This document shows positions 6,248 to 39,419 of a stretch of DNA of 64,000 bases, in pieces; the first letter of the stretch is position 1, and every line of letters begins with the position of its first letter. The position numbers were made by a program, and so were the translations under genes. The stretch is from a phage: the sequence record PV808484.1; one strand, given 5' to 3'. The notes beneath the pieces are model-generated. The model was not told where the DNA came from and did no database searches. It saw nothing but the letters and a program-made list of their open reading frames with translations.

Positions 6248-6412
6248 TTAGCGTACAAAGTTAACTTCTGCTTCTTTCAGCTTTGACACTTCTACATAAC
6301 CACCATGATCATCTTTAATCCATTCTTTTCCTTTACGGATGATAACAGGATATGTAGAGTGAGTAAGTTTAGGTACAGATCTTTTTGTTTTAGTGATAGA
6401 AATGTTTTGCAT
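6248..6412 (-). CDS. small hypothetical protein (54 aa)
   Basis: hand-translated MQNISITKTKRSVPKLTHSTYPVIIRKGKEWIKDDHGGYVEVSKLKEAEVNFVR; AAGGAG SD 6 nt upstream; below ORF-track cutoff. Confidence 0.35.
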   Translation of the reverse strand: MQNISITKTKRSVPKLTHSTYPVIIRKGKEWIKDDHGGYVEVSKLKEAEVNFVR

Positions 6413-6472
6413 AGTAATCTCCTTAGTAAATTTTACATAGAGTCTAGATTATTTAGTAGGTAGAGTCAATAA

Positions 6473-6739
6473 CTAATTACTGTTAGATCTGTACTCTGTC
6501 TTCCATTCACAATGGTAAACTTCAACAGGTTCTAACTTCCAGTGTTCAGGAACTAGTTCAGGACAATATCTACAAAAGAGAAATAGATAGATAACTAAGA
6601 CAGGTATTAAATAGTAAAATGGTATACGATCATAACCATACTTACGAGATAACATGTAGACATATAGATAGGGTATAACAATTAATCCTATAACTATAAG
6701 TAAGAAGAGAAGTATAAACCTTAGTGTAGTAACATCCAT
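6473..6739 (-). CDS. small membrane protein
   Basis: 88 aa; two long hydrophobic segments. Confidence 0.5.
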   Translation of the reverse strand: MDVTTLRFILLFLLIVIGLIVIPYLYVYMLSRKYGYDRIPFYYLIPVLVIYLFLFCRYCPELVPEHWKLEPVEVYHCEWKTEYRSNSN

Positions 6740-6817
6740 AGTATTCTCCTATACAGTAATATACTCTGTTCCTGCCCCTCCATGAGTGACAGGAACAATA
6801 TCTATAGAGAATACTAA

Positions 6818-6878
6818 CTCGCTTCGCTCGTCACCTTTCAGGTTTAGGGTAGCATGTTTTTCTGAAAAAGTCAATACT
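6818..6878. repeat. conserved noncoding element, copy 1
   Basis: CTCGCTTCGCTCG...TTAGGGTAGCATGTTTTT...GAAAAAGT; second copy at 35445-35504. Confidence 0.5.
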
Positions 6879-6904
6879 CTCCACAAAACTTTACAAAATA
6901 CTTT

Positions 6905-7177
6905 TTACATAGGTACAACAGAGTCTGTTTTGAAGTCGTACATATGATTTACACCTGTGATTTTTGACATAGAGATCGCACGTTTAGCACCTGCAATTAC
7001 CTGGTCTGTCTTCTTAATCTCTTCACGGAACTTACGCACAGTTAGAGAGAAGAAACGATGATCCATCCATTGACGATTCACACGATCACGCTTGAAGTGA
7101 CGGAAATCTTCAATCTGTTTATTGCGCAATCGGCGCAGTACATGCAATAATTTATAGTAAGGGTGTTTATTTTTCAT
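6905..7177 (-). CDS. hypothetical protein (basic)
   Basis: 90 aa ORF. Confidence 0.5.
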   Translation of the reverse strand: MKNKHPYYKLLHVLRRLRNKQIEDFRHFKRDRVNRQWMDHRFFSLTVRKFREEIKKTDQVIAGAKRAISMSKITGVNHMYDFKTDSVVPM

Positions 7178-7180
7178 AAT

Positions 7181-7609
7181 TTATTCTCCAAATCGAAAAT
7201 CGTCAATATCATCAAACCATACACAATGGCGAGTCCTTTCTTTTTCTGTTGCAGACATTGTTTCAACAGCTTTAGGACTAAGCACAACAGGAATGTAACG
7301 AACAGGTCGTTCATAGTAGTAGCCATACTTTTCTGTATTAGCTGCCTCAAAGACTTTACGGCGTTCTTCAAGATCTTCTATGGTGAATCCTACCATATAA
7401 CCATCATGTTTGCTACCCCATCCTTCCTCACTTTCAACAATCGGGATATAAAAGCCGTTACGCGTCCCTGACGCTGGTTTTTCTTGAGCCTGAAGGCAAG
7501 CCTCCCATCCTGCTTTAAAGACGTTATAGAGCGATTTACGCACGTTATGAGTGCCGCTTTCGCTTGCTGGATAGAGTTCATTAAATTTATCTTGGATTTG
7601 TTGTGTCAT
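7181..7609 (-). CDS. hypothetical protein
   Basis: 142 aa ORF. Confidence 0.5.
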   Translation of the reverse strand: MTQQIQDKFNELYPASESGTHNVRKSLYNVFKAGWEACLQAQEKPASGTRNGFYIPIVESEEGWGSKHDGYMVGFTIEDLEERRKVFEAANTEKYGYYYERPVRYIPVVLSPKAVETMSATEKERTRHCVWFDDIDDFRFGE

Positions 7610-7752
7610 ACTCGCCCCTTAGTGATTATTTGACCAGCTAAACAAATAGCTTGTAGTACAATAAAGAAGTAGCCTAATTTTACACTACCCAATACCCAGA
7701 ATGCAATGTTTGCAAACAAACAAAAAGCAATATTAAGTCTAAAGAATAACAT
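7606..7752 (-). CDS. small hydrophobic peptide (48 aa)
   Basis: hand-translated MLFFRLNIAFCLFANIAFWVLGSVKLGYFFIVLQAICLAGQIITKGRV; fills intergenic gap; overlaps neighbour start. Confidence 0.3.
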   Translation of the reverse strand: MLFFRLNIAFCLFANIAFWVLGSVKLGYFFIVLQAICLAGQIITKGRV

Positions 7753-7953
7753 TTAATCCCCTTCATATTTAGGTAAAGGCATATATGCCACAATAGGAGG
7801 GTAATCAAAGTGAAAATGATGGTTCACCACAATAATCTTACCAGACATACTTTTATGCACTTCACAATACCCTTTTTCACCATCTTCCATTACCACCACA
7901 TACTCACCTAGTGGGATATCGTATGGATCTTCTACTTTTACCCATTCTGTCAT
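7753..7953 (-). CDS. hypothetical protein
   Basis: 66 aa ORF. Confidence 0.45.
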   Translation of the reverse strand: MTEWVKVEDPYDIPLGEYVVVMEDGEKGYCEVHKSMSGKIIVVNHHFHFDYPPIVAYMPLPKYEGD

Positions 7954-8219
7954 TTTGGAAATACCTCTTGTCCATCTTCATGCATTTGTAGTAAAGTTTC
8001 ACAGATTTCATACACATCTTGGTATGTTACAACTGAGAGATCAGATTCTTGATCTTCGACAAGCATAGCACAAAGAGCTTTAATGTCAATACCTTTACAA
8101 TGTTCCGTAGCTACACGGTACATTTCACCATCCTCCCAAACAATTGGTTGCGGGAGCAAAACATCTGTACCATCTTCACAAGTTACAATGTAGTCTGCAA
8201 TATTGTCACGAATTTTCAT
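7950..8219 (-). CDS. hypothetical protein
   Basis: 89 aa ORF; 4-nt overlap coupling. Confidence 0.5.
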   Translation of the reverse strand: MKIRDNIADYIVTCEDGTDVLLPQPIVWEDGEMYRVATEHCKGIDIKALCAMLVEDQESDLSVVTYQDVYEICETLLQMHEDGQEVFPK

Positions 8220-8473
8220 TGTACTACCCCCTTAAATCCAGATGTACTGCCAGTTTTAACTTTTGCTTTAAGATGTTCCAACTCTACCATAGGTGTTGCT
8301 ACTTGTATAGGATTTTCCTCAACCTCATAAATATAATATTCATAATAAGCATACTTACCAATAGAGTGCAGATACTTAATTGCATGTTCAGGCGAATCTG
8401 CTTCAACATACCCTAAATCTTTTGTGGTACGACCTTCGCAATCACCTTCGGTAGTTACATGATAAAGTGTCAT
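8216..8473 (-). CDS. hypothetical protein
   Basis: 85 aa ORF; 4-nt overlap coupling. Confidence 0.5.
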   Translation of the reverse strand: MTLYHVTTEGDCEGRTTKDLGYVEADSPEHAIKYLHSIGKYAYYEYYIYEVEENPIQVATPMVELEHLKAKVKTGSTSGFKGVVQ

Positions 8474-10266: not shown

Positions 10267-10440
10267 ATGAGTTTCTTTGTTACAGTATTTATGGCTATTT
10301 GGATTGTAGTCTCACTCGTTCTTTTCCTGGTGGGTTGTCTGGAAGAGATTAAGAAAGCGGTTATTTGCGGTTTCTTTGGCTTTATTATCTCTCCTGCCTG
10401 GATGTGGTTCTTCATTATGATTGGTTTCCTTAAAAGGTAA
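10267..10440 (+). CDS. small membrane protein (57 aa)
   Basis: hand-translated MSFFVTVFMAIWIVVSLVLFLVGCLEEIKKAVICGFFGFIISPAWMWFFIMIGFLKR; GGGAGAAAGG SD. Confidence 0.4.
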   Translation: MSFFVTVFMAIWIVVSLVLFLVGCLEEIKKAVICGFFGFIISPAWMWFFIMIGFLKR

Positions 10441-10903: not shown

Positions 10904-12031
10904 ATGAAATACACGATTTATGGTGATATTGTAAGTGTAAATAAAGATATGGGCGTGGAATCTAACTACCTTCCACCTGGATTCTATACTGTTAGTCGTG
11001 ATCCCCTTGGCAATTATTTTTTAAGCCGTGGTAATCTGACAGGTGTACCGGATGTTCTGTATGGTGAAACAGAAAAACGAGCAAATCACGTTATCCGTAC
11101 ATTCCATCGCCGGAGTGCACAAGGTAAAAATACAGGTTTGCTCCTGACAGGAACTAAGGGCAGTGGTAAAACTATGTTAGCCAAACTCATTAGTCGTGAC
11201 CTTGTAGAAGAAGGTATTCCAACTATTATGGTTACTCAAGCCTACAGCGATGCTAATTTCATTGAACTTATTAGCAAGATCACCGACAAAGCAGTGATTA
11301 TTTTTGACGAGTTTGATAAAGTGTATGAGAAGAAACAAGATCAAGAAGCACTTCTCACTTTGTTAGATGGTACTGGCAGTGGTAATAAACTGTTTATTCT
11401 GACTAAAAACAGTGGTTTTATCTCTGAATTCTTTTTAAATCGTCCTAGTCGTGTGTTTTATAATTTTAATTATGATAAAATCTCACTAGAAACTATGATT
11501 GACTATTTAGATAAAAACCTGGATAACAAAGCACACTTTGATAATTTCCAAAGACTTTGGGATGTAAGTTTAGAGTTGTCCTTTGATGTGATCCAAGGTA
11601 TAGTAGAAGAACTTAATTTCTACCCTGATTTATCCTTTAAAGAATGCATCTCTATGATGGGCGTTTCTTTAGGTGGTGGTAATAAATGGGATATCAGCAG
11701 CGTTGTTATTAATGGAAAACTTCAGAAAGTTAGCTGGGTATCTAGTTGGCATAACTTCACACCTGCAATCTTTTTAGGTGGTTCGTGCACACTAGACGTG
11801 TACTTGTCATCTCCAAGTGATGCAGATTCTAAAGAAGCCCTTGCTAATAGCTCTTACGTGGTTTTTGATGATGAAGGCGATGCTCGAATTCCATTGAATG
11901 CGACAAAAATGAAAGCAGACCTTATCACAGGCGGTAAAATCGTTGTGTTTAGTGATGATCCAGAAGATTCTTTCCGTATTGTTCTGGAACCAACTATCAC
12001 CAATGGTGCAACTTTGGCAAGCGTGTTTTAA
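10904..12031 (+). CDS. AAA-type ATPase
   Basis: Walker A LLTGTKGSGKTMLAKL and Walker B VIIFDEFDK. Confidence 0.7.
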   Translation: MKYTIYGDIVSVNKDMGVESNYLPPGFYTVSRDPLGNYFLSRGNLTGVPDVLYGETEKRANHVIRTFHRRSAQGKNTGLLLTGTKGSGKTMLAKLISRDLVEEGIPTIMVTQAYSDANFIELISKITDKAVIIFDEFDKVYEKKQDQEALLTLLDGTGSGNKLFILTKNSGFISEFFLNRPSRVFYNFNYDKISLETMIDYLDKNLDNKAHFDNFQRLWDVSLELSFDVIQGIVEELNFYPDLSFKECISMMGVSLGGGNKWDISSVVINGKLQKVSWVSSWHNFTPAIFLGGSCTLDVYLSSPSDADSKEALANSSYVVFDDEGDARIPLNATKMKADLITGGKIVVFSDDPEDSFRIVLEPTITNGATLASVF

Positions 12032-13635: not shown

Positions 13636-13854
13636 TATTTTGAAAATTTTTATTTTTATAAAAAGGGGTGTGGGTTTCATGTACGGAAATCCACCCTCTG
13701 AATAATATATCCAGAGTAAGTATTATTCTGTACTCTGTTAATAAATTATTTAATTTGTTTGTTGGATTATGATATCTGGTTTTTAAAAGGCATACTATCT
13801 CTTAACTACTACTTATAACAGAACAGTAAAATCATTTTTATAAAAAGGACAAAA

Positions 13855-14051
13855 TTATTTAAAGTTTTTACAGATTTTTGGGTACAAATTTTGAAAATGA
13901 AAAGTTCAAGTTTGGTCAAAATTATTTAAAGTTTTTGTACGTATTTCCATCCAGATTTTGAAAATGAAAAGTTCAATTTTTTAAAAATTCCCCAGTTTAT
14001 TTAAAGTTTTTTTGCCTTTTTCCGTAGAAAAATCAAAAATGAAAAGTTCAA
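13855..14051. repeat. three imperfect tandem repeats (~67-73 bp) with two conserved boxes
   Basis: box A TTATTTAAAGTTTTT at 13855, 13923, 13997; box B TTTTGAAAATGAAAAGTTCAA at 13889, 13956, 14031. Confidence 0.6.
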
Positions 14052-14076
14052 TTTCGTGTTTTTATAGGTATGCGTA

Positions 14077-14190
14077 TGATAATCATTCTCATTTGTAAAT
14101 GAGAATCATTATCATTTAATTATGTAAGTGATAATCATTCTCAGTAAGAGAATGAGAATCATTAGCAAATGAGAATTTTCTCATTTAGAG
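14077..14190. promoter_or_regulatory. cluster of Fur-box-like palindromes
   Basis: TGATAATCATTCTCATT, AATGAGAATCATTATCATT, GTGATAATCATTCTCAG, AATGAGAATCATTAGC; compare Fur consensus GATAATGATAATCATTATC. Confidence 0.5.
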
Positions 14191-14447
14191 AATAACGCGT
14201 AGGGGTGGTGTTTGTCTCGCGCTCCCGTGTCCCCTCGCCATACAATAAGAATAGCATAACCAACAACAAAAGCAAGCGATTATTTTTATCTTTACATTTC
14301 TTTACAAATTTATTTTAGACGAGCTACCGGCGATCAACCTTCCAACCAGTGTGCCCTGGTATGTTAGCCCCGCCTTTACGCCGTGGGGGTGGCGCTTCCT
14401 CTTCTGTATGTAAAACAGTATAAGCCCGATCCCTGGGCTTGTCAAGA

Positions 14448-14714: not shown

Positions 14715-14824
14715 GGTATCGCCCTTTCTTTGATGTGCGCCCTGGTTGGCGCGGTAGAAAGATAATAGCCCCTTTCCTTTATAGATAGCAAGCAAAAAAG
14801 AAATGAAAAAAGATTAAAAAAGGG

Positions 14825-14853
14825 TTGACGTTCCTCACCTGGTAGCGTATTAT
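14825..14853 (+). promoter_or_regulatory. sigma70-like promoter
   Basis: TTGACG-17 nt-TATTAT. Confidence 0.45.
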
Positions 14854-14980
14854 TCATCTTGTCGAGGGGGGCGAGGCACAACGACAATAAACAAAAGGAG
14901 GGCGCAATGCAGGACGGGCAAAGGTGAGGATCTCCACAATCCACCGTCACAATAACATTACTTATAAAAGGTTGATAACG

Positions 14981-15076
14981 ATGATCAAGAAAGAAAACAG
15001 CTTGACGGTTGGAACGATTAACGCTATCATTTTCGCCGTTCCATTTTGGGTTGTAGTAGCGGTTATTATCTTTTAA
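14981..15076 (+). CDS. small hydrophobic peptide (31 aa), type I toxin-like
   Basis: MIKKENSLTVGTINAIIFAVPFWVVVAVIIF; about 120 nt leader containing a 6-codon mini-ORF (MQDGQR) with AAGGAGG SD. Confidence 0.35.
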   Translation: MIKKENSLTVGTINAIIFAVPFWVVVAVIIF

Positions 15077-15084
15077 AAATATTC

Positions 15085-15141
15085 TTGACAACGTTTTTTA
15101 ATCTGATAAGATGTATCACATAGGGCGGCAATAGTGCCGCT
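15085..15141 (+). promoter_or_regulatory. promoter plus 5'-UTR hairpin cassette
   Basis: TTGACA-16-TAAGAT then CATAGGGCGGCAATAGTGCCGCTCATA. Confidence 0.55.
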
Positions 15142-15164
15142 CATAACAGAAGAGAGAAATAATC

Positions 15165-15437
15165 ATGGCATCATATAGCGCATCAATGATCGTAATGGGT
15201 ATCACTGGTAAACCTATGCGCGGTGGCGGATCTTTCGCTAACATCAATATTGATGGACGTTTATCCCTGGACGCAGCGATCACAGTGGCACGGGAAACAT
15301 TTAAAAAAGAATGTAATTTCAATAAACAAGATTATCTCGGTTTCGCTATTGAAAAAACCGCGCGATTTGTGGATTATAAAAGCCCGAAAATGATCGACAC
15401 TACACTAAAAGCGAAAGATGTAGCGTTTTTGCTTTAA
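15165..15437 (+). CDS. hypothetical protein
   Basis: 90 aa ORF downstream of cassette. Confidence 0.55.
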   Translation: MASYSASMIVMGITGKPMRGGGSFANINIDGRLSLDAAITVARETFKKECNFNKQDYLGFAIEKTARFVDYKSPKMIDTTLKAKDVAFLL

Positions 15438-15440
15438 GAC

Positions 15441-15501
15441 TTGACACTGAAAAATAATTTGGTAATATATACCACATAAGGCGGGGAAATGGTTTCCCGC
15501 C
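15441..15501 (+). promoter_or_regulatory. promoter plus 5'-UTR hairpin cassette
   Basis: TTGACA...TAATAT then GGCGGGGAAATGGTTTCCCGCC. Confidence 0.55.
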
Positions 15502-15526
15502 AAGCCATCAAAGAAAGGGTAACACA

Positions 15527-15889
15527 ATGAGCAAGCAAATCAATACTATCATGTTAAACCTGGTATCTTTCCGCGATGACGTGAAAAATCTTTCGCGTGA
15601 TGCAGTGGATGCACGGATCGAAAGCTATCGCACACAGATCGCAACATTACCGTTAAAACGTGATCAACATGCCGCTAATATGATGCTTGATGCTATGATT
15701 AAAAAGATGATTCAATGTGATCTTACTCTGGCTTATGAATATGCTGGCGATCTTTTTGTAACATATAACAAGCCCGTTCCAGGTATGAGCACCACGGAAG
15801 AATTGCATGCCTTAAATCTGCGACAAGATGCATGGGATAACATGCGCCGTGTTATGGTATGGGTAGAAAGCGGTAAAATTTACGAATAA
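15527..15889 (+). CDS. hypothetical protein
   Basis: 120 aa ORF; AAAGGG SD. Confidence 0.55.
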   Translation: MSKQINTIMLNLVSFRDDVKNLSRDAVDARIESYRTQIATLPLKRDQHAANMMLDAMIKKMIQCDLTLAYEYAGDLFVTYNKPVPGMSTTEELHALNLRQDAWDNMRRVMVWVESGKIYE

Positions 15890-15895
15890 AAACGG

Positions 15896-15950
15896 TTGAC
15901 ATTGCACTAAAACCTGATAAGCTATCTTAAAGCGGGAATAGTTCCCGCTT
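15896..15950 (+). promoter_or_regulatory. promoter plus 5'-UTR hairpin cassette
   Basis: TTGACA then AAGCGGGAATAGTTCCCGCTT. Confidence 0.5.
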
Positions 15951-15967
15951 ACATAGGATAAAACTTT

Positions 15968-16114
15968 ATGAAACAATATGTAATGAGTATTCACACCAAA
16001 AACGGCGCTACTGTTACGACTCCGGCACGGTTTGCACTTGTAAACCGTTGCAAGAGACTAAAACGAGAGCTAAAAAACAACCGTGCAACGGGCTTTAAAC
16101 GCTGGGGAGGATAA
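15968..16114 (+). CDS. small basic protein (48 aa)
   Basis: hand-translated MKQYVMSIHTKNGATVTTPARFALVNRCKRLKRELKNNRATGFKRWGG; cassette upstream. Confidence 0.4.
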   Translation: MKQYVMSIHTKNGATVTTPARFALVNRCKRLKRELKNNRATGFKRWGG

Positions 16115-16116
16115 TC

Positions 16117-16389
16117 TTGTTTTTTCTAAAAGTTTTTGATAATGTGATCGCTTTTGAACATGCTGCAACGTTCAACCTGGCGAGATACGCTATCAGGTTT
16201 AAAGATAATGTTTATCCCCGTGCTGGTGGCGGTTACACTATCTTTAATCATCGTAACGCTCAATTAACGGATATAACGAATCCAGATCCTGGAGTGTATC
16301 GCATAGGTTGGCTACCGTCAAAAGACGCGGCAAGCATGTTTAAGGTGTGTAAACTACTAACAGAAGAGGCGAACGAACATGGGGCGTGA
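16117..16389 (+). CDS. hypothetical protein (probable TTG start)
   Basis: no in-frame ATG near 5' end; GGGGAGG SD 6 nt before TTG. Confidence 0.4.
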   Translation: MFFLKVFDNVIAFEHAATFNLARYAIRFKDNVYPRAGGGYTIFNHRNAQLTDITNPDPGVYRIGWLPSKDAASMFKVCKLLTEEANEHGA

Positions 16390-16933
16390 ATATGTGATCC
16401 AGTCCTGGGTAAAGCATGATGCTGATGATCCGCGCATAATACCAGATGACATGATCGATCACATGGTAGGGTATAGCGGGGAGCAGATAGGAAATCGAGC
16501 GGCAAAGAGCAACGGTCACACAAAAACGCGATCCGTTCGCCCTGGTTGGCTGGCAAATGGTAACGCTGACATTGCAAGCGCCGCAGATCCAAGCGATGAC
16601 GCTAAAAATAATCCCTTATACAGCATTGATCCGGCTTTTAAGGTGTTAGAAGAGTATCCCGCTAAATTAGCCGCACTAGATAAAGCATATGAAGAAAAGC
16701 GCATGGCATGGACGGTATACAACACCGCTAAAATGGTGCTAGATGCAAAATTGATTAAAGCCCAGGAGAAGATCAATAAACTTGTTACCATAGCGCAAGA
16801 GGAAGACCAGGACGACCAGGAGGAAGAGGAAGAAATCATGCCTACCCTGGAAGAGGAAGAGATCCAGCCATACATGCCGACGGAAGAGGAAAAAAGACAA
16901 GCCCTAAAAAATTATGAAAATTGTGTTGTGTAA
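16379..16933 (+). CDS. hypothetical protein with acidic C-terminus
   Basis: 184 aa; ATG overlaps upstream stop; EEDQDDQEEEEE tract. Confidence 0.5.
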   Translation: MGREYVIQSWVKHDADDPRIIPDDMIDHMVGYSGEQIGNRAAKSNGHTKTRSVRPGWLANGNADIASAADPSDDAKNNPLYSIDPAFKVLEEYPAKLAALDKAYEEKRMAWTVYNTAKMVLDAKLIKAQEKINKLVTIAQEEDQDDQEEEEEIMPTLEEEEIQPYMPTEEEKRQALKNYENCVV

Positions 16934-16936
16934 GGC

Positions 16937-17042
16937 TTGACATATGCAAACAAGCCCCGTAATATGTACCACATAAAGCGGGGCAACGCCCCATAAGGTG
17001 AAATAAAAAATCACTTGACACCTGAAATCAGTAAGCTATAAT
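16937..17042 (+). promoter_or_regulatory. tandem promoters, first with 5' hairpin
   Basis: TTGACA-17-TAATAT then AAGCGGGGCAACGCCCCAT; second TTGACA-16-TATAAT. Confidence 0.5.
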
Positions 17043-17079
17043 GCTTATATAGATTGAAACATTACTAAGGAATAAAAGC

Positions 17080-17259
17080 ATGGCTATTATTGCAAAGACT
17101 GAGATCGTAGGTTTAGATTCTATCATCCTGGCATATGAGGAAGCTATAGAAATGTATGTGGTTTCCTATGGTGATTATATCCGTGAATATAAATCTATTG
17201 ATCTAGCTTTTGAATGCTATATTCGCCAGGTCAATAAAGCCTATGATGATTATCGTTAA
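17080..17259 (+). CDS. small protein (59 aa)
   Basis: hand-translated MAIIAKTEIVGLDSIILAYEEAIEMYVVSYGDYIREYKSIDLAFECYIRQVNKAYDDYR. Confidence 0.4.
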   Translation: MAIIAKTEIVGLDSIILAYEEAIEMYVVSYGDYIREYKSIDLAFECYIRQVNKAYDDYR

Positions 17260-17354
17260 AAGTTTTAGTCTTGTGCTATTGACAACGAACGATAGTGCAA
17301 GCATAATAACTTTTATCGGGAATACTCCTAACTAATCAAAAGAGATTAAAGACT

Positions 17355-17720
17355 ATGGCTAAAAATATCAATGTTTCTGCTTATGCTACCCTGGCTAACA
17401 CTGCTAAAATTGAACTATCCAGCATTGAAGCGGTACATATTAGCGCCCGTCGCTGGTTTCAAAAGTCTTATGGTAACACTTATTTCTCTTTGATGGTTGA
17501 CGTTGAGATCGGCGGTAAACTGATTGAAGTCGTTAACGTTCCGTTTCACTATGGCTACGGGGATCATTTTGATACCGTTGCCCTAGAAGAGTTTAGCAAG
17601 GTTATCAACCTGGAAGGTAAAGAATTTTCAAATTATGCCTACCTTTCCCGTTTTTGCCGTGATAATGGGATCGCTGTATACAGTCATGCAAGCGATGTTA
17701 AACGTAAAAAAGATTTATAA
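17355..17720 (+). CDS. hypothetical protein
   Basis: 121 aa ORF; TTGACA-type promoter about 17280. Confidence 0.55.
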   Translation: MAKNINVSAYATLANTAKIELSSIEAVHISARRWFQKSYGNTYFSLMVDVEIGGKLIEVVNVPFHYGYGDHFDTVALEEFSKVINLEGKEFSNYAYLSRFCRDNGIAVYSHASDVKRKKDL

Positions 17721-17726
17721 AAAGCA

Positions 17727-17754
17727 TTGACAGCACGAATAAAAAGCGTAAAAT
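17727..17754 (+). promoter_or_regulatory. sigma70-like promoter with no ORF directly downstream
   Basis: TTGACA-16-TAAAAT; followed by about 85 nt structured noncoding sequence. Confidence 0.4.
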
Positions 17755-17840
17755 GTTTCATATCAGGACGGGGAACGAAGTAACACCCCGTTAAGTAGCC
17801 CAGGAGTAAGACACACGAAAAACTCCCCTGATAAAATAGT

Positions 17841-17901
17841 TTGACAATGGTTTCTAATAACGTATAATACTTACATCGAGAGCGGGAACACTTCCCGCCT
17901 C
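17841..17901 (+). promoter_or_regulatory. promoter plus 5'-UTR hairpin cassette
   Basis: TTGACA-16-TATAAT then AGCGGGAACACTTCCCGCC. Confidence 0.55.
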
Positions 17902-17923
17902 ACTGAAAAAAGAGATTAACATC

Positions 17924-18163
17924 ATGGCTAAATCTAAAATGTTCTTAGGTCACAAAAACAAAACTCATTGGAATGTAAGCCTTTGGATCAACAACGATGA
18001 AGGTTTTTATAATCTTGCGCGTGAATTTATCGCAGCTAACACCAATAAGAATGACGCAGCGCGTGATATGATGTTATTTCTTGAAAGTATGGATCAAGAT
18101 AAAACGCCAGACGGATTCAAGTTCAGTAAAACCGCGATCCGTGCCGCTATGGTTGGAATGTAA
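17924..18163 (+). CDS. hypothetical protein
   Basis: 79 aa ORF. Confidence 0.55.
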   Translation: MAKSKMFLGHKNKTHWNVSLWINNDEGFYNLAREFIAANTNKNDAARDMMLFLESMDQDKTPDGFKFSKTAIRAAMVGM

Positions 18164-18258
18164 AGGAGACATAAAAATGAAACATCGTTCGACCTATCTC
18201 ACAAAACGTTTTAGCTTAGATCATAAATTGGGCTATTACGGAAGAAATAGAAAATAAT

Positions 18259-18318
18259 TTGACAACGTTTTAAATTAGTGTAAGATATATCACATAGGGC
18301 GGGAAATGGTTTCCCGCC
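18259..18318 (+). promoter_or_regulatory. promoter plus 5'-UTR hairpin cassette
   Basis: TTGACAACGTTTT...TAAGAT then GGGCGGGAAATGGTTTCCCGCC. Confidence 0.55.
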
Positions 18319-18340
18319 AAATCAAAGAAAGGTTATCATT

Positions 18341-18568
18341 ATGGCTATCATTATTGTTCGCGTATCCGGTACGGTTGGAAGCTCCCAGGTAGTAGCAGTT
18401 ATCACAGAGAAGAAAGGGGATGATCTTCACTCTTCCTTGAATAGTTGGGCGGTCGCTAATTTTGGTCAGTGGTCGAGCGTCGAGTATATCGAATCCTACC
18501 AGGTGCCGACGATTAGCCTAACCGATTTAAATGTTGATCGCTTGTTGTGCCTGGATGGATTAAACTAA
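18341..18568 (+). CDS. hypothetical protein
   Basis: 75 aa ORF. Confidence 0.55.
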   Translation: MAIIIVRVSGTVGSSQVVAVITEKKGDDLHSSLNSWAVANFGQWSSVEYIESYQVPTISLTDLNVDRLLCLDGLN

Positions 18569-18576
18569 AAATAATC

Positions 18577-18633
18577 TTGACAAGATAACTAAAATCAGTA
18601 AAATGTAATGCATAGGGCGGCAATAGTGCCGCT
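18577..18633 (+). promoter_or_regulatory. promoter plus 5'-UTR hairpin cassette
   Basis: TTGACA-16-TAAAAT then CATAGGGCGGCAATAGTGCCGCTCATA. Confidence 0.55.
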
Positions 18634-18655
18634 CATAGTAAGAGAGATTATCAAA

Positions 18656-18871
18656 ATGGCTAATATCCGCACACTGTTAAAAAATGCAAGTCAAGTTTTA
18701 TTTTCAGATGACGAGTATTTCAACAAAGACATTACAGGCGTGAAAAATTTAAAAGACGTGAAGGATGTTATCGGTATCCGTGGATCTTTACGTAAAGGTG
18801 ACATATACGGTAACAAGGTGCAATATAAACTGTCAAAAGATTATGATTTTACTTTGACAATTATCAATTAA
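18656..18871 (+). CDS. hypothetical protein
   Basis: start at internal ATG (MANIRT) downstream of cassette. Confidence 0.5.
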   Translation: MANIRTLLKNASQVLFSDDEYFNKDITGVKNLKDVKDVIGIRGSLRKGDIYGNKVQYKLSKDYDFTLTIIN

Positions 18872-18882
18872 GGGATCACAAA

Positions 18883-19041
18883 ATGAAAACTTGCCAATGT
18901 GGTAAAAAGTCTATCTCTGGTTTAAAACGTGGCGTTGCTCTTTGTCAATATCACTATAACGCTCAAACGTGGGGTAAGCAGTGGGCGGATCAGATGGAAG
19001 AGGCAAAGAAAGAAAATATAAAAGTAGTTGCAAAGAAATAA
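18883..19041 (+). CDS. small Cys-containing protein (52 aa)
   Basis: hand-translated MKTCQCGKKSISGLKRGVALCQYHYNAQTWGKQWADQMEEAKKENIKVVAKK. Confidence 0.4.
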   Translation: MKTCQCGKKSISGLKRGVALCQYHYNAQTWGKQWADQMEEAKKENIKVVAKK

Positions 19042-20947: not shown

Positions 20948-21043
20948 ATGCCCTATTTACATTTATTTTTCGGTATCTTATTGACAGGATCTTTTTTCTT
21001 CTGTATGCTTGTTTCTATTGTAAACCACGTTTTAAGACATTAA
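20948..21043 (+). CDS. small hydrophobic peptide (31 aa)
   Basis: MPYLHLFFGILLTGSFFFCMLVSIVNHVLRH. Confidence 0.3.
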   Translation: MPYLHLFFGILLTGSFFFCMLVSIVNHVLRH

Positions 21044-21052: not shown

Positions 21053-21172
21053 ATGAAAATTATTCCCGTACAATATAGCGTAATAAATCCAGCATACGAG
21101 GAAGGAAGGAAAACAAGCATGGCTTTATGTTGTATTGCTACTATAGCCATGTTGTTATGCATTGTGTTTTAA
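21053..21172 (+). CDS. small hydrophobic peptide (39 aa)
   Basis: MKIIPVQYSVINPAYEEGRKTSMALCCIATIAMLLCIVF. Confidence 0.3.
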   Translation: MKIIPVQYSVINPAYEEGRKTSMALCCIATIAMLLCIVF

Positions 21173-21272
21173 TAGGTTTTATAGTTGTACGCTTTAAAGG
21201 CTTGACAATTTTTTGTTATGCTTTAAACTATATCTTGAAAACGGCAAAGGCCGCAAACAAAAGGGTAAAATT

Positions 21273-21596
21273 ATGAAATCTGTGATCGGTGTTTATTTGG
21301 ATAACTCTGATTTTTTCTATCATCGCGCTCGTTTCCTTGATGCGATTGAAATGATAGAATCAGGCTTTAAAGAGTATCGCCTTGCACATGATGACCTGGA
21401 AGCATTACAGGGCAATAGTGTTTTTACATTGCAAGCTAAAGCACTATGCAAAAGCCGGATCGACATTGCGAGCAAAAAGATAGAACGCGGCATGTCCTGG
21501 TTGCGCACCGCAGAAATCAACATGGGGCAATGGTACGGCGAAAACTTAGAAAATAAACATGCTTTTGTCAATGTAGAAAATATTGAAGATTATTGA
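21273..21596 (+). CDS. hypothetical protein
   Basis: start at internal ATG (MKSVIG) after AAAGGG SD. Confidence 0.5.
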   Translation: MKSVIGVYLDNSDFFYHRARFLDAIEMIESGFKEYRLAHDDLEALQGNSVFTLQAKALCKSRIDIASKKIERGMSWLRTAEINMGQWYGENLENKHAFVNVENIEDY

Positions 21597-22763: not shown

Positions 22764-22868
22764 ATGTTAGAGAAAATTTTCACGGTTGTAGTAGTGGGCC
22801 TGGCGTTATCGGTTGGAGTGGTTGCAACTATGGCTAACATGATTCTATCTTCTCACGGTATTGGATAA
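22764..22868 (+). CDS. small hydrophobic peptide (34 aa)
   Basis: MLEKIFTVVVVGLALSVGVVATMANMILSSHGIG. Confidence 0.3.
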   Translation: MLEKIFTVVVVGLALSVGVVATMANMILSSHGIG

Positions 22869-26513: not shown

Positions 26514-26872
26514 GATATTTGAGGGGGACGGTCGGCAGAAATCGGGGGGCGCTGAAAATCGCGTTAAGCACCTCTCGCAAGCGAGCAGTATTTTGCGGCA
26601 AGTTATTGATATTATTGGCTTTACGCTTATGGAAAGGGGGTGTGTCGAAATAAATCGGGTATACCGGAAAATTTTTGTGGCATAGATATTTATTTGTCTA
26701 TATTATGTACAAAGGGGTGTGTTAAAAATATTAGGTATATATAGAATAATTGATAGGGAAATCCTATACTAATTCCTCCATTAATGATGTTTCTATGTTG
26801 CTGTTCTTGTAACAGATGAAAAGACGCTGTATGATGTGTAGCATGAAACGTAAATTTATAAAGGAGTCTGAT

Positions 26873-28371: not shown

Positions 28372-28548
28372 ATGGATAAACAAACTACTGTGTACTTAGT
28401 AACAAAGAATACCCCAGGCTGGAGCCAATGCAGCACTGTCCCTTACAAGATTTGTGCAACATTAGAACTAGCACAACGCGCAGAAGCAGAAGTGGATGCC
28501 ATGCAATACAGCTATGGTGAGATCATTCCTTTTACTCTTGAACAATAA
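28372..28548 (+). CDS. small protein (58 aa)
   Basis: MDKQTTVYLVTKNTPGW...; AGAGAGGAAAAG SD. Confidence 0.4.
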   Translation: MDKQTTVYLVTKNTPGWSQCSTVPYKICATLELAQRAEAEVDAMQYSYGEIIPFTLEQ

Positions 28549-30408: not shown

Positions 30409-30633
30409 ATGGTAAAACGTCTGGAATGGGATGCGTGTACTGCTCACGCTTGTCACTGTGATATTGTTGAAGATCCTAATGGAGAGATGGTGTATTATGA
30501 GGATTACGAAGCATTGCACAATGCTGTGATTGCTTTACTGGATGATATTAGCTCACGCTATCCAGGACAACAATTCACGTGTCCACATATCCAACTATTA
30601 GCCGAACTTACGGAGTATCCAAGTGTTCCATAA
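30409..30633 (+). CDS. paralog family C protein
   Basis: CHCDIVEDPNGEMVYYEDYEAL matches 35768-36040 (CDIVPDPEGDYVLLADYNKL). Confidence 0.5.
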   Translation: MVKRLEWDACTAHACHCDIVEDPNGEMVYYEDYEALHNAVIALLDDISSRYPGQQFTCPHIQLLAELTEYPSVP

Positions 30634-30634
30634 T

Positions 30635-30802
30635 ATGGGTGTCCCTGAACAACTGCTCTTTATTGTAGGATTAGTAGGCTTATTGGCGGCTGGCGCTAAA
30701 GCCGCTTCTCACACGCATCACATAATGTTAAGATTTCTGTTCCTACTCCCTTCTATCCTTGTATTATTAGTCATATTGATTGATAACATTTTTCACAATT
30801 AA
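30635..30802 (+). CDS. small membrane protein (55 aa)
   Basis: MGVPEQLLFIVGLVGLLAAGAKAASHTHHIMLRFLFLLPSILVLLVILIDNIFHN. Confidence 0.35.
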   Translation: MGVPEQLLFIVGLVGLLAAGAKAASHTHHIMLRFLFLLPSILVLLVILIDNIFHN

Positions 30803-35351: not shown

Positions 35352-35444
35352 GAGTAGTAAGTAAGGTATAAAGAGTATATAGTTAGTTATAGAGTTAGTA
35401 ACATTACATATACTCTTCCCATGTATAACATGGAATATTCTCTA

Positions 35445-35504
35445 CCTCGCTATCGCTCGGTATATAAGATTAGGGTAGCATGTTTTTTACGAAAAGTAAA
35501 ACTG
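35445..35504. repeat. conserved noncoding element, copy 2
   Basis: CCTCGCTATCGCTCGG...TTAGGGTAGCATGTTTTTT...GAAAAGT; matches 6818-6878. Confidence 0.5.
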
Positions 35505-35558
35505 TTTATACCGATTGATAGCAGGTTTTTAATAGATTCTATCTATGAGGAGTAGAAA

Positions 35559-38078: not shown

Positions 38079-38183
38079 ATGATGACGTTTATTGTTGGTG
38101 TTATTGTTGGTTATTTTGGTCACAAGTACCAGGATGTTATCATCGCTAAAGTTGACGAAGTAATCGAAAAATTTAAACACTAA
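38079..38183 (+). CDS. small hydrophobic peptide (34 aa)
   Basis: MMTFIVGVIVGYFGHKYQDVIIAKVDEVIEKFKH; AAGGAGAAG SD. Confidence 0.3.
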   Translation: MMTFIVGVIVGYFGHKYQDVIIAKVDEVIEKFKH

Positions 38184-38193
38184 TTTTTTAAAA

Positions 38194-38221
38194 GGCTGTA
38201 CTGCTGTGCAGCCTATCTTTC
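38194..38221 (+). terminator. possible terminator hairpin
   Basis: GGCTGTAC-TGCT-GTGCAGCC then TATCTTTC. Confidence 0.4.
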
Positions 38222-38234
38222 AAAGGAGAGTAAA

Positions 38235-38408
38235 ATGTTCAAAGATACCAATTATAAATGTGTACATTGCGGTAAATCTTTTGGTGATCACAAAGCTAAA
38301 ACATTCAATTGTCCACGAAAAGGGCGGGGTAGCTTTAAAGGTTTTAATCCATCCCACGTTTACTCTCCCAACTACGACAAACCAGAAGAAGAAAAATTTG
38401 TAATCTGA
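38235..38408 (+). CDS. small zinc-ribbon-like protein (57 aa)
   Basis: MFKDTNYKCVHCGKSFGDHKAKTFNCPRKG...; AAAGGAGAG SD; preferred over overlapping ORF-track frame 38206-38403. Confidence 0.45.
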   Translation: MFKDTNYKCVHCGKSFGDHKAKTFNCPRKGRGSFKGFNPSHVYSPNYDKPEEEKFVI

Positions 38409-38417
38409 GGAGGCAAT

Positions 38418-38705
38418 ATGGAACTAGTGCAAGAAGTTTATGAAAAACTGAAAGAAGAGAATCTTGATTGGCCTGAACATGCTCTTATTGTCGTCAAAGA
38501 TACTAATGGTGAAATAAAATTCTCAAGTGTAAGTGAAGATGATGTTGTTTTAAGTCCTACAGGGTATTATATGAGAGGTGTTACGTGTCTATTCAACACC
38601 AAAGTGTATCCTGAAATTAAACTTAGTTACGGTGAACCTGATCATCCAGAAATCGTTACACGTAATGAATATGAAAATTATTATTTTGCTCGTGAAAGCA
38701 AATAA
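38418..38705 (+). CDS. hypothetical protein
   Basis: 95 aa ORF; GAGGAGG SD. Confidence 0.55.
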   Translation: MELVQEVYEKLKEENLDWPEHALIVVKDTNGEIKFSSVSEDDVVLSPTGYYMRGVTCLFNTKVYPEIKLSYGEPDHPEIVTRNEYENYYFARESK

Positions 38706-38713
38706 GGAAAACT

Positions 38714-39037
38714 ATGCAAAAAATAAACACTGGTTCTCGTCCTAAACAGAAGCAAACAAAAGCAAGGGTATCTTATGTTGACAACTCTTGTTATAATTTC
38801 AAAAATGTTAAAGAAGTTATCATTGATGAAAAAGAAGGTTTGATTCACATTTCATCTGAACGTTTGAAAGGTAGTGTTACTCTTCGTGAGAATGTATCTA
38901 TACCTATGAAAGTTGTGGCTACACTCTGTGTTGATAAGCCAGATGTTGTTAACTACTATGTGTTCCGTGATAGTTGTATTTCATTACATAATAAGATTTT
39001 TAAATCTTCGCACGTTAAAACAAAACACATTGTATAA
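38714..39037 (+). CDS. hypothetical protein
   Basis: 107 aa ORF; AAGGAAAA SD. Confidence 0.55.
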   Translation: MQKINTGSRPKQKQTKARVSYVDNSCYNFKNVKEVIIDEKEGLIHISSERLKGSVTLRENVSIPMKVVATLCVDKPDVVNYYVFRDSCISLHNKIFKSSHVKTKHIV

Positions 39038-39042
39038 CACAT

Positions 39043-39067
39043 AAACCCGCTTCGGCGGGTTTTCTTG
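39043..39067 (+). terminator. rho-independent terminator
   Basis: AAACCCGC-TTCG-GCGGGTTT then TCTTG; same hairpin as 12048. Confidence 0.7.
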
Positions 39068-39122
39068 TATATATGCTCTTTGTGTGTTTTTATTTGTCTT
39101 AGCCTAAACAGTAGGAGGTCTT

Positions 39123-39344
39123 ATGTCTGTAGTTGTAGAAGGTAGTATTGGTTTCTTAGTAGATAACCCTCACCCTTTCGTGGTTAAGGTTCATATTCAA
39201 GAAAAGGTAAGCAACAATACGTGGTTGTGCTTGTTAGATAGTAAGATACACTCTTATACAGAGGTTTATCTTCACACTTGGCAAATTGGTACGATAACAG
39301 CAGAGGATGAATTGATAATTGAATTATATGAACGAGATCTATAG
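39123..39344 (+). CDS. hypothetical protein
   Basis: 73 aa ORF; AGGAGG SD. Confidence 0.55.
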   Translation: MSVVVEGSIGFLVDNPHPFVVKVHIQEKVSNNTWLCLLDSKIHSYTEVYLHTWQIGTITAEDELIIELYERDL

Positions 39345-39419
39345 ATGACTTTACTAGAGAGTATCGTAGTGTTAATCATCTTTATCATTGTTGTCATAGG
39401 ATATTTTACAGAAGACTAA
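39345..39419 (+). CDS. possible micro-peptide (24 aa, hydrophobic)
   Basis: MTLLESIVVLIIFIIVVIGYFTED; ATG overlaps upstream stop. Confidence 0.2.
   Translation: MTLLESIVVLIIFIIVVIGYFTED

Follow-up and report, generated by a model that had tools for sequence, protein, structure and literature searches.

Conserved genes for very small, predicted membrane proteins in a phi92-like Escherichia coli phage

The stretch of DNA analysed here (the window; 64,000 nucleotides of sequence record PV808484.1) comes from a Justusliebigvirus, a phi92-like E. coli myovirus with a 37% GC genome, and is 98% identical to phage EmilieFrey, with coordinates offset by 64000. An earlier note on this DNA had picked out eight small open reading frames (ORFs) with Shine-Dalgarno (SD) sequences, several of them strongly hydrophobic, and all eight are present exactly at the coordinates given there. 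They are listed below with the small gene that opens the range surveyed by the earlier reader; transmembrane (TM) segments are predictions.

6248..6412, (-) strand: 54-aa soluble small protein; phrog_10388; SD TAAGGAG
7606..7752, (-) strand: 48-aa hydrophobic protein, probably a two-helix hairpin; bas61_0094 homologue; phrog_27111, E=1e-35
10267..10440, (+) strand: 57-aa two-TM hairpin protein; phi92 gp219; phrog_22950; SD GGGAGA
14981..15076, (+) strand: 31-aa tail-anchored single-TM protein with an invariant N-terminal IKKENSLTVG motif; bas61_0110
20948..21043, (+) strand: 31-aa single-TM protein (TM residues 7-25); bas61_0128; strong, well-spaced SD AAGGAG
21053..21172, (+) strand: 39-aa tail-anchored protein; phAPEC8 gp259 homologue; phrog_10979 'membrane protein', E=2e-9; SD AAGGA
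22764..22868, (+) strand: 34-aa single-TM protein with many small-xxx-small motifs; bas61_0135; phrog_14631, E=2e-22; SD GAGGG
30623..30802, (+) strand: two-TM hairpin protein of 55 aa (ATG 30635) or 59 aa (GTG 30623); bas61_0156 / phi92 gp009
38079..38183, (+) strand: 34-aa protein, anchored by 14 hydrophobic residues at its N-terminus and carrying a conserved helix, KYQDVI.AKV; phi92 gp032; phrog_11666; SD AAGGAG

The earlier estimate of at least ten credible small ORFs was conservative, as positions 6248-39419 hold 20 credible genes of less than 60 aa. Its description of them as unannotated fails for EmilieFrey, whose GenBank record (MZ501063.1) carries CDSs with identical coordinates (+64000) for seven of the eight (bas61_0094, 0103, 0110, 0128, 0135, 0156 and 0180), and holds for 21053, 20948, 22764 and 14981 in many other public records. 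Of 10 records sampled, 7 lack a CDS at 20948, the phi92 RefSeq entry among them; at 21053, among the 12 matches listed, nine records have no CDS, two are wholly unannotated and one annotates the ORF. Within the panel of relatives, 22764 is annotated in only 2/8 records, 14981 in 3/7 and 7606 in 5/5. Otherwise the description applies only relative to the 60-aa ORF track used by the earlier reader. Most of the eight are already on public record as hypothetical proteins.

Several other small GenBank CDSs of the region were judged spurious: 13809(-), 24136(-), 25240, 26044 and probably 35421, together with bas61_0129 (21127..21276, (+) strand). All five variant sites of the latter are nonsynonymous (0/5), it is frameshifted in L011, and it has no PHROG, SD or Phapecoctavirus counterpart. 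It overlaps the 3' end of 21053-21172 as well as the SD and promoter that serve gene 21273; a TTGACA-N16-TAAACT promoter is located at 21202-21229.

Intact copies of the eight ORFs occur in 56-127 phage genomes. Gene 7606 was found in 56 phage records, all of Justusliebigvirus type, at 90-100% amino acid identity, 20948 in 56 at 90-100% and 21053 in 56 at 80-100%. The tuntematon and phAPEC8 homologues of 21053, labelled 'membrane protein', are 42-48% identical; in this gene the C-terminal TM segment follows a soluble N-terminus with the motif V[QE]Y[ST]V.NPA..EG[RK]K. Gene 10267, whose TM windows cover residues 4-22 and 32-50, has matches in 57 records (>=99% identity in 52), with distant homologues in Citrobacter phage Tr1 (38.6%) and in Phapecoctavirus (26%, E=4e-5) that have the motifs M[SA]-FF and SP[AV]W in common with it. 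Genes for a TM protein and an AAA+ ATPase follow it downstream, as they do in Tr1. For 14981, 108 phage records (Justusliebigvirus, Phapecoctavirus and Klebsiella phages) gave identities of 55-100%. An upstream GTG extension of this gene was rejected, being not conserved, and similarity to tuntematon starts at the ATG. Gene 22764 is intact in 8/8 panel loci, both Phapecoctavirus loci at 94% amino acid identity, and 38079 was found in 127 records in both genera, with 54-60% identity in Phapecoctavirus. In contrast, 30635, with TM windows spanning residues 7-25 and 30-48, appears genus-restricted, because a search of 5.8 billion proteins returned no more than two 90%-identity clusters: the first takes its name from phage AV123, and the second is an unnamed ENA cluster. 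Among divergent homologues the ORF stays the same length, a short motif is invariant, and the TM segment remains hydrophobic while its sequence drifts; protein motifs are kept across genera at 42-60% identity. Five of the ORFs belong to the PHROGs given above (27111, 22950, 10979, 14631 and 11666; HMM E about 1e-9 to 1e-40), and 14981, 20948 and 30635 have no match in PHROGs v4.

An SD-like site precedes the start in seven of the eight ORFs, the exception being the ATG of 30635. An in-frame GTG at 30623, 12 nt upstream of that ATG, has GGAG 7 nt before it; the corresponding 180-nt form is annotated by PATM, and 59 aa is also the length in database cluster P0002. Judged from these features, GTG 30623 is probably the likelier start. 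The SD of 14981 is weak in the window and good in tuntematon (AAGAGG).

Membrane segments were called with a simple hydropathy window, the best 19-residue Kyte-Doolittle value, which was 1.92 for 7606(-), 2.91 for 10267, 2.70 for 14981, 2.32 for 20948, 2.44 for 21053, 2.46 for 22764, 2.78 for 30635 and only 1.18 for 38079. Seven of the eight are thus of TM grade, and 'strongly hydrophobic' was overstated for 38079 because it has only the 14-residue N-terminal anchor, below TM grade and with no canonical TM segment. The predicted architectures are single-pass and tail-anchored for 14981 and 21053, single-pass for 20948 and 22764, a two-TM hairpin for 10267, 30635 and probably 7606, and an N-terminally anchored amphipathic helix for 38079. 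TM-grade segments occur in 7/20 genes of less than 60 aa vs 5/70 larger genes (Fisher p=0.004).

Such ORFs could be chance open frames without functional products, since AT-rich, T-rich DNA favours hydrophobic codons. The 37% GC content fits this reading, as do the spurious GenBank CDSs of the region and the low hexamer coding score of 20948 (79th percentile of the null). As a chance baseline we used 252 wrong-frame small ORFs within long genes of the window: 9.5% reach a hydropathy of 1.6, only 1.6% reach 2.3, and 13% have an SD-like site. The eight ORFs as a set are well above this expectation, and they fit exactly into the gaps of tightly packed operons.

Selection weighs further against chance. 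Distinct variant sites were counted over related genomes without a tree, and are therefore not fully independent; pooled over 13 related loci, they amount to 49 synonymous and 28 nonsynonymous changes (S/N) in frame, whereas the two shifted frames show 14/61 (Fisher p=1.5e-8) and 12/64 (p=1.2e-9). For the small ORFs omega was 0.16, close to the value of 0.13 obtained for 29 long genes from the same region. Taken singly, the counts are significant for 30635 (12/1 in frame vs 4/9 and 0/13 shifted; p=4e-7), 22764 (10/4 vs 1/13 and 1/13; p=5e-4) and 14981 (11/12 vs 4/17 and 3/19; p=0.006), and reach about 0.03 for 7606 (5/4 vs 2/7 and 4/5; binomial p=0.027), 20948 (4/3 vs 1/6 and 2/5; p=0.036, with few variant sites) and 21053 (4/3 vs 1/6 and 1/6). 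Gene 38079 has 2/1 in frame, and 10267 has a single variant site in nine orthologs, near-invariant DNA in which selection on the protein is inseparable from low regional diversity. The four singly weakest ORFs, when pooled, gave 15/11 vs 12/40 (p=0.005); 20948 is the weakest of the eight. The soluble gene at 6248..6412 (-) gave 7/0 vs 0/7 and 1/6. The chance reading of the set is largely refuted and very improbable. Because of the frame-specific purifying selection, the intact copies in 56-127 genomes and the conserved motifs, the eight are credible, and by these sequence criteria appear to be genuine, conserved protein-coding genes of a phi92-like lytic phage for very small integral or membrane-anchored proteins.

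Translation of the ORFs might matter only to their neighbours, as regulatory upstream or coupling ORFs whose peptide is irrelevant. Genes 7606, 10267, 30635 and 38079 are closely packed, and partly coupled in translation, in long operons made up of small accessory genes: 7606 (SD GAAGGGG) shares an ATGA overlap with its downstream gene, its start at 7752 adjoins an upstream stop, the ATG of 38079 does likewise, and the GTG-initiated 30623 form overlaps the upstream gene. However, the amino acid sequence is under purifying selection and motifs are kept at low DNA identity, while 14981 is followed by a next gene with an independent promoter, and we regard coupling as the sole function as most improbable.

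The other four, 14981, 20948, 21053 and 22764, lie within an array of near-consensus host-type sigma70 promoter cassettes, of a kind typical for early genes. Enrichment of promoters is confined to 13.5-27 kb, with 71 of them against an expected 46.9+/-6.6, and the phAPEC8 curators mark host-dependent promoters at equivalent sites. Because of this siting, these four are probably made immediately after infection.

The earlier note had suggested superinfection exclusion, lysis timing or host-membrane targeting as roles. Lysis timing, in which the peptides would be holins, pinholins, antiholins or spanin subunits that set the burst time, is disfavoured and highly unlikely. Their size and one or two TM segments are holin-like, and class II holins are two-TM hairpins, as 30635 and 10267 are predicted to be. 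Nevertheless, the neighbours of the eight ORFs include no lysis-family PHROG or Pfam match, the peptides have no Pfam match, holins included, four ORFs sit in the early-promoter array, and 30635 does not end in the charged C-terminal tail that holins typically have. The lipobox-like L-V-G-C of 10267 was rejected as a lipoprotein signal, as homologues do not keep the Cys and a basic n-region is absent.

Toxic peptides of type I-like kind (Hok/TisB/Ldr/Ibs), depolarising the membrane, or host-shutoff peptides hitting proton-motive force, cell-wall or division machinery seem quite unlikely. Type I toxins are short peptides with a single very hydrophobic helix, a description matched at 31-57 aa here, and 14981 has a weak SD, while its 5' leader, at about 120 nt, is long. 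Against this, searches of Pfam and NCBIfam matched none of the toxin families, whether Hok, Ldr, TisB, Ibs or another, there is no antisense RNA gene and no Rfam match, and the motifs IKKENSLTVG, KYQDVI.AKV and NPA..EG[RK]K suggest specific binding over generic membrane damage.

Superinfection exclusion and host-membrane targeting are plausible by analogy. That the eight as a group bar further phage DNA or block receptors and entry, like T4 Imm/Sp, HK97 gp15 or T5 Llp, is unlikely. Predicted early expression and inner-membrane location would fit, and the subfamily-wide conservation of 14981, 22764 and 38079 is compatible with self-exclusion; on the other hand, PHROG, Pfam and NCBIfam show no similarity to known exclusion proteins, and eight different peptides are unlikely all to serve exclusion. 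T4 Imm and Sp, at about 83-97 aa, are also larger than the peptides here.

We consider it likely that the eight are genuine genes for tiny membrane proteins, expressed early in part, that act on the host envelope. If translated as we infer, each peptide would insert into the E. coli inner membrane, where either the TM helix or the short, conserved motif in its soluble part would bind and modulate a host or phage envelope component, a mode of action that would resemble that of bacterial regulatory microproteins and of small membrane proteins already known from phages; it might serve to take over the host, to keep competing phages out or to guard against envelope-linked defences. The functional part is an analogy, because PHROG, Pfam and NCBIfam contain no homologue of characterised function for the eight peptides, which matched no family at all in the latter two. 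The literature on this phage group yielded no expression, translation or localisation data for these proteins, and our data give no pointer to a specific or unusual function. The finding is an ordinary one.

The EmilieFrey CDSs, phi92 gp219, gp032 and gp009, phAPEC8 gp259 and PHROGs 27111, 22950, 10979, 14631 and 11666 represent the same genes as those described here, with genus-wide amino acid identities of about 90-100% (80-100% for 21053). Phage genomes contain many genes of less than 100 aa, which annotation frequently overlooks and whose products commonly act on processes of the host (the review PMC11323111, citing Fremin et al. 2022, Cell Rep 39:110984). The characterised examples in that review are mostly soluble regulators; 'transmembrane' is absent from it and 'membrane' appears three times, incidentally. 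PMC7677548 concerns T4 Spackle, a superinfection-exclusion membrane protein. T4 Imm and Spackle are likewise small early envelope proteins of a lytic myovirus, with no sequence similarity to the eight in PHROG or Pfam. Holins, pinholins and type I toxins are also small, with one or two hydrophobic helices; the peptides here differ from them in having no family match, lysis-gene neighbours or antisense RNA, and in their early-type promoter context. Bacterial regulatory small inner-membrane proteins such as AcrZ, MgtS, MgrB, CydX/YbgT and KdpF are 30-50 aa long, have a single TM helix, are often tail-anchored, and act by binding a larger membrane complex. The peptides here are phage-encoded and have no sequence relationship to these microproteins (best Pfam match YbgT_YccB, E=0.45, 11 bits vs a 26-bit cutoff), yet they resemble them in length and in the single TM helix, and AcrZ-type microproteins would, by analogy, be the favoured working model.

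By megablast, the window falls in the genus Justusliebigvirus (subfamily Stephanstirmvirinae), the phi92-like E. coli myoviruses, and matches about 290 phage records. The nearest is Escherichia phage EmilieFrey (Bas61, MZ501063.1), whose coordinates equal those of the window plus 64000. Over the 35 kb compared, 756 substitutions and no indels separate the two, and differences within annotated CDSs fall 126, 58 and 361 on codon positions 1, 2 and 3, a split that indicates natural divergence under selection. The genome's accessory genes occupy the stretch 6248-39419. One operon there reads leftward (6.2-8.8 kb), and about 80 genes, most of them tiny, read rightward (8.9-39.4 kb), this second group being broken by two non-coding repeat regions; neither tRNAs nor Rfam families were found in the window. 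The single kilobase between 24 and 25 kb holds 125 of the 756 differences. Here 48 of the 231 nt of a 76-aa gene at 24420-24650 (+) are changed relative to EmilieFrey, with 22 amino acid changes, between flanks about 2% divergent; the gene is either a mosaic/recombination patch or a fast-evolving gene. About 19 "Campylobacter phage" records (e.g. A145, A110a, C3) are ~95% identical to these E. coli phages, and "Enterococcus phage heks" (39.7 kb) has a 942-bp stretch that is 92.9% identical; mislabelled hosts or assembly contamination in databases are the probable cause.

Small membrane proteins remain understudied in phages, where some of them govern exclusion, lysis or host physiology. An earlier note had proposed at least ten credible unannotated micro-ORFs with SD sequences in this region, several of them strongly hydrophobic, and all eight of the hydrophobic ORFs that it listed are present at exactly the coordinates claimed.

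The eight hydrophobic micro-ORFs, named in the text by their first coordinate. Hydropathy is the best 19-residue Kyte-Doolittle window; S/N, synonymous/nonsynonymous variant sites in the ORF frame and in two shifted frames; annotated, panel records annotating the ORF over panel records carrying it, by coordinate cross-reference.
7606-7752 (-): 48 aa; hydropathy 1.92, two TM segments probable; S/N 5/4 in frame, 2/7 and 4/5 shifted, p=0.027; annotated 5/5
10267-10440: 57 aa; hydropathy 2.91, two TM-grade segments; S/N 1/0 in frame, 0/1 and 1/0 shifted, p=0.21, too few sites; annotated 6/6
14981-15076: 31 aa; hydropathy 2.70; S/N 11/12 in frame, 4/17 and 3/19 shifted, p=6e-3; annotated 3/7
20948-21043: 31 aa; hydropathy 2.32; S/N 4/3 in frame, 1/6 and 2/5 shifted, p=0.036; annotated 2/6
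21053-21172: 39 aa; hydropathy 2.44; S/N 4/3 in frame, 1/6 and 1/6 shifted, p=0.033; annotated 2/8
22764-22868: 34 aa; hydropathy 2.46; S/N 10/4 in frame, 1/13 and 1/13 shifted, p=5e-4; annotated 2/8
30635-30802: 55 aa; hydropathy 2.78, two TM-grade segments; S/N 12/1 in frame, 4/9 and 0/13 shifted, binomial p=4e-7; annotated 3/5
38079-38183: 34 aa; hydropathy 1.18; S/N 2/1 in frame, 1/2 and 0/3 shifted, p=0.098; annotated 5/5

The claimed hydrophobicity holds as a TM-grade segment in seven of the eight, whereas 38079 has only a 14-residue N-terminal anchor. An SD-like site was likewise found at seven but not before the ATG of 30635, where GGAG lies 7 nt before an in-frame GTG at 30623; this start agrees with a longer CDS in phage PATM and with a 59-aa database cluster. 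In a null set of 252 small ORFs in the wrong frame within long genes of the window, a hydropathy of 1.6 was reached by 9.5% and one of 2.3 by 1.6%, and 13% had an SD-like site. Twenty credible genes shorter than 60 aa lie in 6248-39419, and seven of them have a TM-grade segment compared with 5 of 70 larger genes (Fisher p=0.004). The observation of hydrophobic micro-ORFs is confirmed and goes beyond chance.

Selection was assessed in a panel of 13 related loci, which includes eight or nine from Justusliebigvirus (genomes or contigs) and the genomes of two Phapecoctavirus phages, with each distinct variant site scored as synonymous or nonsynonymous. Pooled over the eight ORFs, S/N was 49/28 in frame versus 14/61 and 12/64 in the shifted frames (Fisher p=1.5e-8 and 1.2e-9), and omega was 0.16 compared with 0.13 in 29 long genes of the same region. 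The four individually weakest ORFs, when pooled, gave 15/11 in frame versus 12/40 shifted (p=0.005). As a set, the eight are very probably real small membrane-protein genes; for 20948 and 7606 taken individually our confidence is somewhat lower.

The distribution of the peptides was followed by tblastn against 50,697 phage records. Homologues of 7606, 20948 and 21053 were found in 56 records each (80-100% identity), of 10267 in 57 (at least 99% identity in 52), of 14981 in 108 and of 38079 in 127, while exact copies of 30635 and 22764 are present in panel loci. A homologous-protein search returned only two near-identical clusters each for 30635 and 10267, and IMG/VR scans anchored on 10267, 30635 and the AAA+ ATPase gene downstream of 10267 returned only 2-4 close relatives each. 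Three of the eight micro-ORFs are conserved across the whole subfamily. Alignments of the most divergent homologues reveal a short invariant motif beside a hydrophobic stretch of drifting sequence, a pattern that, as a feature of sequence, is the signature of real small membrane proteins. In 14981 the motif [ML]IKKENSLTVG precedes a variable TM tail and is found in E. coli and Klebsiella phages; in 21053, V[QE]Y[ST]V.NPA..EG[RK]K precedes a TM tail (42-48% identity); in 38079 the anchor is followed by KYQDVI.AKV (54-60% identity); and 10267 encodes a 2-TM hairpin with M[SA]-FF ... SP[AV]W (26-39% identity). Similarity between 14981 and Phapecoctavirus begins at the ATG, which identifies the 31-codon ORF as the conserved unit; a 50-aa form with an upstream in-frame GTG extension was rejected, as it is not conserved in Phapecoctavirus. 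In the leader upstream of 14981 lies a six-codon mini-ORF, MQDGQR (14907-14927, +), with a strong SD (AAGGAGG) and a stop that overlaps the in-frame GTG; it is conserved within Justusliebigvirus only and not in Phapecoctavirus. The motif KKENSLTVG is confined to this phage group: its 13 matches among 185,579 bacterial genomes reflect chance or unrelated sequences, and viral matches come from the same group, apart from one broken by a stop codon.

The description of these ORFs as unannotated was true of the 60-aa track from which the earlier note worked, but seven of the eight are CDSs with identical coordinates in EmilieFrey. Several have phi92 gene numbers (gp219, gp032, gp009), and five belong to PHROGs. 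Annotation nevertheless varies from record to record. In the wider tblastn samples, both of which include the phi92 RefSeq, no CDS lies beneath 21053 in 9 of the 12 records listed (2 more are without any annotation) or beneath 20948 in 7 of 10 records. For 21053-21172 the earlier call improves on the EmilieFrey and J-01 records, which annotate the overlapping 21127-21276 instead. The latter was rejected as a gene, as it has 0 synonymous and 5 nonsynonymous sites, no SD, no PHROG and a frameshift in one panel contig (L011), and the next gene's promoter and SD lie within it. In phages tuntematon and phAPEC8 the Phapecoctavirus homologue of 21053 has the label "membrane protein". The products of the eight ORFs, predicted small membrane proteins, are uncharacterised; the phage genus is heavily sequenced, and most of the eight are already in public annotation. 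The gain is one of annotation hygiene for a well-sampled genus, in that eight micro-ORFs are, with high confidence, real genes, and for one of them some GenBank records carry a spurious CDS that overlaps it instead.

Two transcriptional settings were distinguished. Between 13.5 and 27 kb, 71 sigma70-type promoters were found compared with 46.9+/-6.6 in shuffled sequence, many with 11-12 of 12 matches, and at least 15 near-consensus promoters (TTGACA-N16/17-TAtAAT) lie in 14800-24500 (+). After each of these comes a conserved GC-rich hairpin of one of two kinds, GGGCGGCAATAGTGCCGC or GGGAAATGGTTTCCCGCC, and then a stereotyped SD (ATCAAAGAAAGGG / ATCAATAAAGAGAT) and ATG, with one cassette per early gene.

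Examples of promoter-hairpin cassettes.
15074-15155 (+)
15430-15512 (+)
18248-18329 (+)
18566-18647 (+)
21988-22036 (+)
22391-22444 (+)
23473-23553 (+)
24365-24413 (+)

The phAPEC8 record marks host-dependent/PHIRE promoters at the equivalent sites, including one immediately upstream of the 21053 homologue; it gives no role for the 5' hairpins. From the sigma70 enrichment and this annotation we infer that host RNA polymerase probably transcribes 14981, 20948, 21053 and 22764 as soon as infection has taken place. No promoter enrichment was found in the 5.9-13.7 kb and 26.5-39.6 kb blocks, where 7606, 10267, 30635 and 38079 lie within long operons with tight junctions (an ATGA overlap, a stop codon that abuts the next start, or an overlap into the gene upstream).

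Twelve credible non-hydrophobic ORFs shorter than 60 aa accompany the eight. An in-frame synonymous excess was found for those at 6248 (-), 15968, 17080, 19113, 19745, 22045, 22261, 28372, 32708, 34665 and 38235, and for the one at 18883, whose only panel ortholog is in EmilieFrey, the evidence is its SD and coding score. Purifying selection acts on the 58-aa gene at 28372-28548 (+), with 23 S / 10 N, but the gene is frameshifted in phage muut and one metagenomic contig, so it is dispensable in some lineages. When all intergenic gaps were screened for further conserved micro-ORFs, the sole and marginal candidate was 18177-18257 (+), a possible additional micro-ORF encoding a basic 26-aa peptide, with an AAGGAG SD, intact in 4 orthologs and with 2 S / 0 N. 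Five small GenBank CDSs were rejected as genes, namely 21127-21276 and four more: 13809-13919 (-) has a stop codon in J-01, 24136-24303 (-) has stop codons in PATM and J-01, 25240-25380 has no frame preference and stops in Phapecoctavirus, and 26044-26163 has indels and start loss. The CDS at 35421-35555 is doubtful (S/N 0/2, no SD), and 6749-6886 (-), a possible gene, has a TTG start, no SD and no variation. The two large non-coding regions, 13636-14447 and 25110-26870, contain several spurious GenBank CDSs; in all, 21127-21276 aside, about five small GenBank CDSs fall in non-coding repeat regions and are probably not genes. Three AT-rich tandem repeats of about 70 nt each lie at 13834-14054, and TGATAATCATTCTCA iterons are common to both regions (14077-14150, 25355-25384 and 26295-26526). 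Coordinate 1 of the phi92 GenBank record corresponds to about 26224 in the window, and the two regions may be origin, packaging or terminal-repeat sequences.

Around 10267, which encodes the 2-TM microprotein, the gene order (83-aa protein, this microprotein, a TM protein, an AAA+ ATPase) is common to the window and Citrobacter phage Tr1, and Phapecoctavirus has an analogue of it. A general "split membrane-anchored AAA" module composed of the last three was rejected, since six divergent phages with an ATPase of the same family have no TM protein upstream of it. The ATPase gene (10904-12031, +) is labelled "FtsH-like protease" in EmilieFrey; its product has an AAA domain only (PF00004, E=1.5e-9), with no peptidase domain, and its family, phrog_2376 "ATPase", occurs in 361 phage records, some of them from Herelleviridae and jumbo phages. 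Between microprotein and ATPase, the product encoded in the Phapecoctavirus loci (12862-13218 in L005, 13720-14079 in L006) has about 118 aa and a Sec signal peptide of the classical type (MKKLILATLLATVSFTTYAQ...), and that of the window is a 145-aa 2-TM protein, so that the same position is held by different proteins predicted to be envelope-targeted.

Comparison with known families placed five of the ORFs, at full length, in PHROG HMMs, with these E-values: 7606 (phrog_27111, 1e-35), 10267 (phrog_22950, 7e-40), 21053 (phrog_10979, 2e-9), 22764 (phrog_14631, 2e-22) and 38079 (phrog_11666, 1e-12). All five are uncharacterised phage protein families; 14981, 20948 and 30635 had no PHROG, and none of the eight had a significant Pfam or NCBIfam match. 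The earlier note had suggested roles in superinfection exclusion, lysis timing or host membrane targeting. For lysis, no holin family matched, the only Pfam hit at E<=1 for any of the eight being a non-significant one to YbgT, and their PHROGs fall under "unknown" or "moron/host takeover" rather than "lysis". The neighbours of 30635, 38079, 20948/21053, 7606, 22764 and 10267 include no lysis PHROG or Pfam, no lysis cassette and no other informative family. TM domains are present, but 30635 and 10267 end in DNIFHN and FLKR rather than in a holin-type charged C-terminal tail, and 14981 and 21053 end inside the TM segment. A lipoprotein-type envelope protein (o-spanin Rz1, Cor, Llp) was also rejected, as only 10267 has a lipobox-like LVGC, with no K/R before it and with the Cys replaced by Ser or Ala in homologues. 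No ORF matched type I toxins (Hok/Gef, Ldr, TisB, Ibs, ShoB) in Pfam or NCBIfam, and a check for antisense RNA found no Rfam family in the window and minus-strand consensus-promoter matches scattered at background level. Exclusion proteins of the T4 Imm/Sp type gave no match in Pfam, NCBIfam or annotated PHROGs; the similarity of 38079 to the bacteriocin immunity family PncF (E=0.025, 14.6 bits versus a 45-bit cutoff) is not significant.

The micro-ORF products are predicted to be small inner-membrane proteins, in which a conserved short motif or TM helix would bind a host or phage envelope component, with host takeover, exclusion or defence evasion as the outcome for the phage. We hold this general functional class with middling confidence, by analogy with bacterial regulatory microproteins and known phage membrane proteins (background; review PMC11323111); any single specific function is improbable for these ORFs. 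For neither the proteins nor the phage group did literature searches yield transcriptomic, Ribo-seq or functional data. It is also conceivable, if unlikely, that at least one subfamily-wide tail-anchored microprotein is a new kind of immediate-early effector that disables a specific host membrane-associated factor. Anchored at the inner membrane, its short invariant motif would bind that factor, for example a defence effector, a transporter or a divisome component. Candidates are the 31-aa IKKENSLTVG-plus-TM protein (108 genomes), the 34-aa anchor-plus-KYQDVI.AKV protein (127 genomes) and the 34-aa product of 22764, and sequence singles out no one of the microproteins as targeting a host complex. 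A conserved microprotein shown to do so would be a useful new tool. Such an effector would be the phage counterpart of bacterial regulatory microproteins, through a mechanism not yet described for phages. The eight ORFs do not belong to the AcrZ, MgtS, CydX, KdpF or MgrB families, and the best match to bacterial small membrane families is that of YbgT_YccB (the CydX family) to 22764 (E=0.45, 11.1 versus a 26.2-bit cutoff). Their likeness to the bacterial regulatory small membrane proteins, by sequence alone, is one of size (<60 aa) and of predicted TM architecture.
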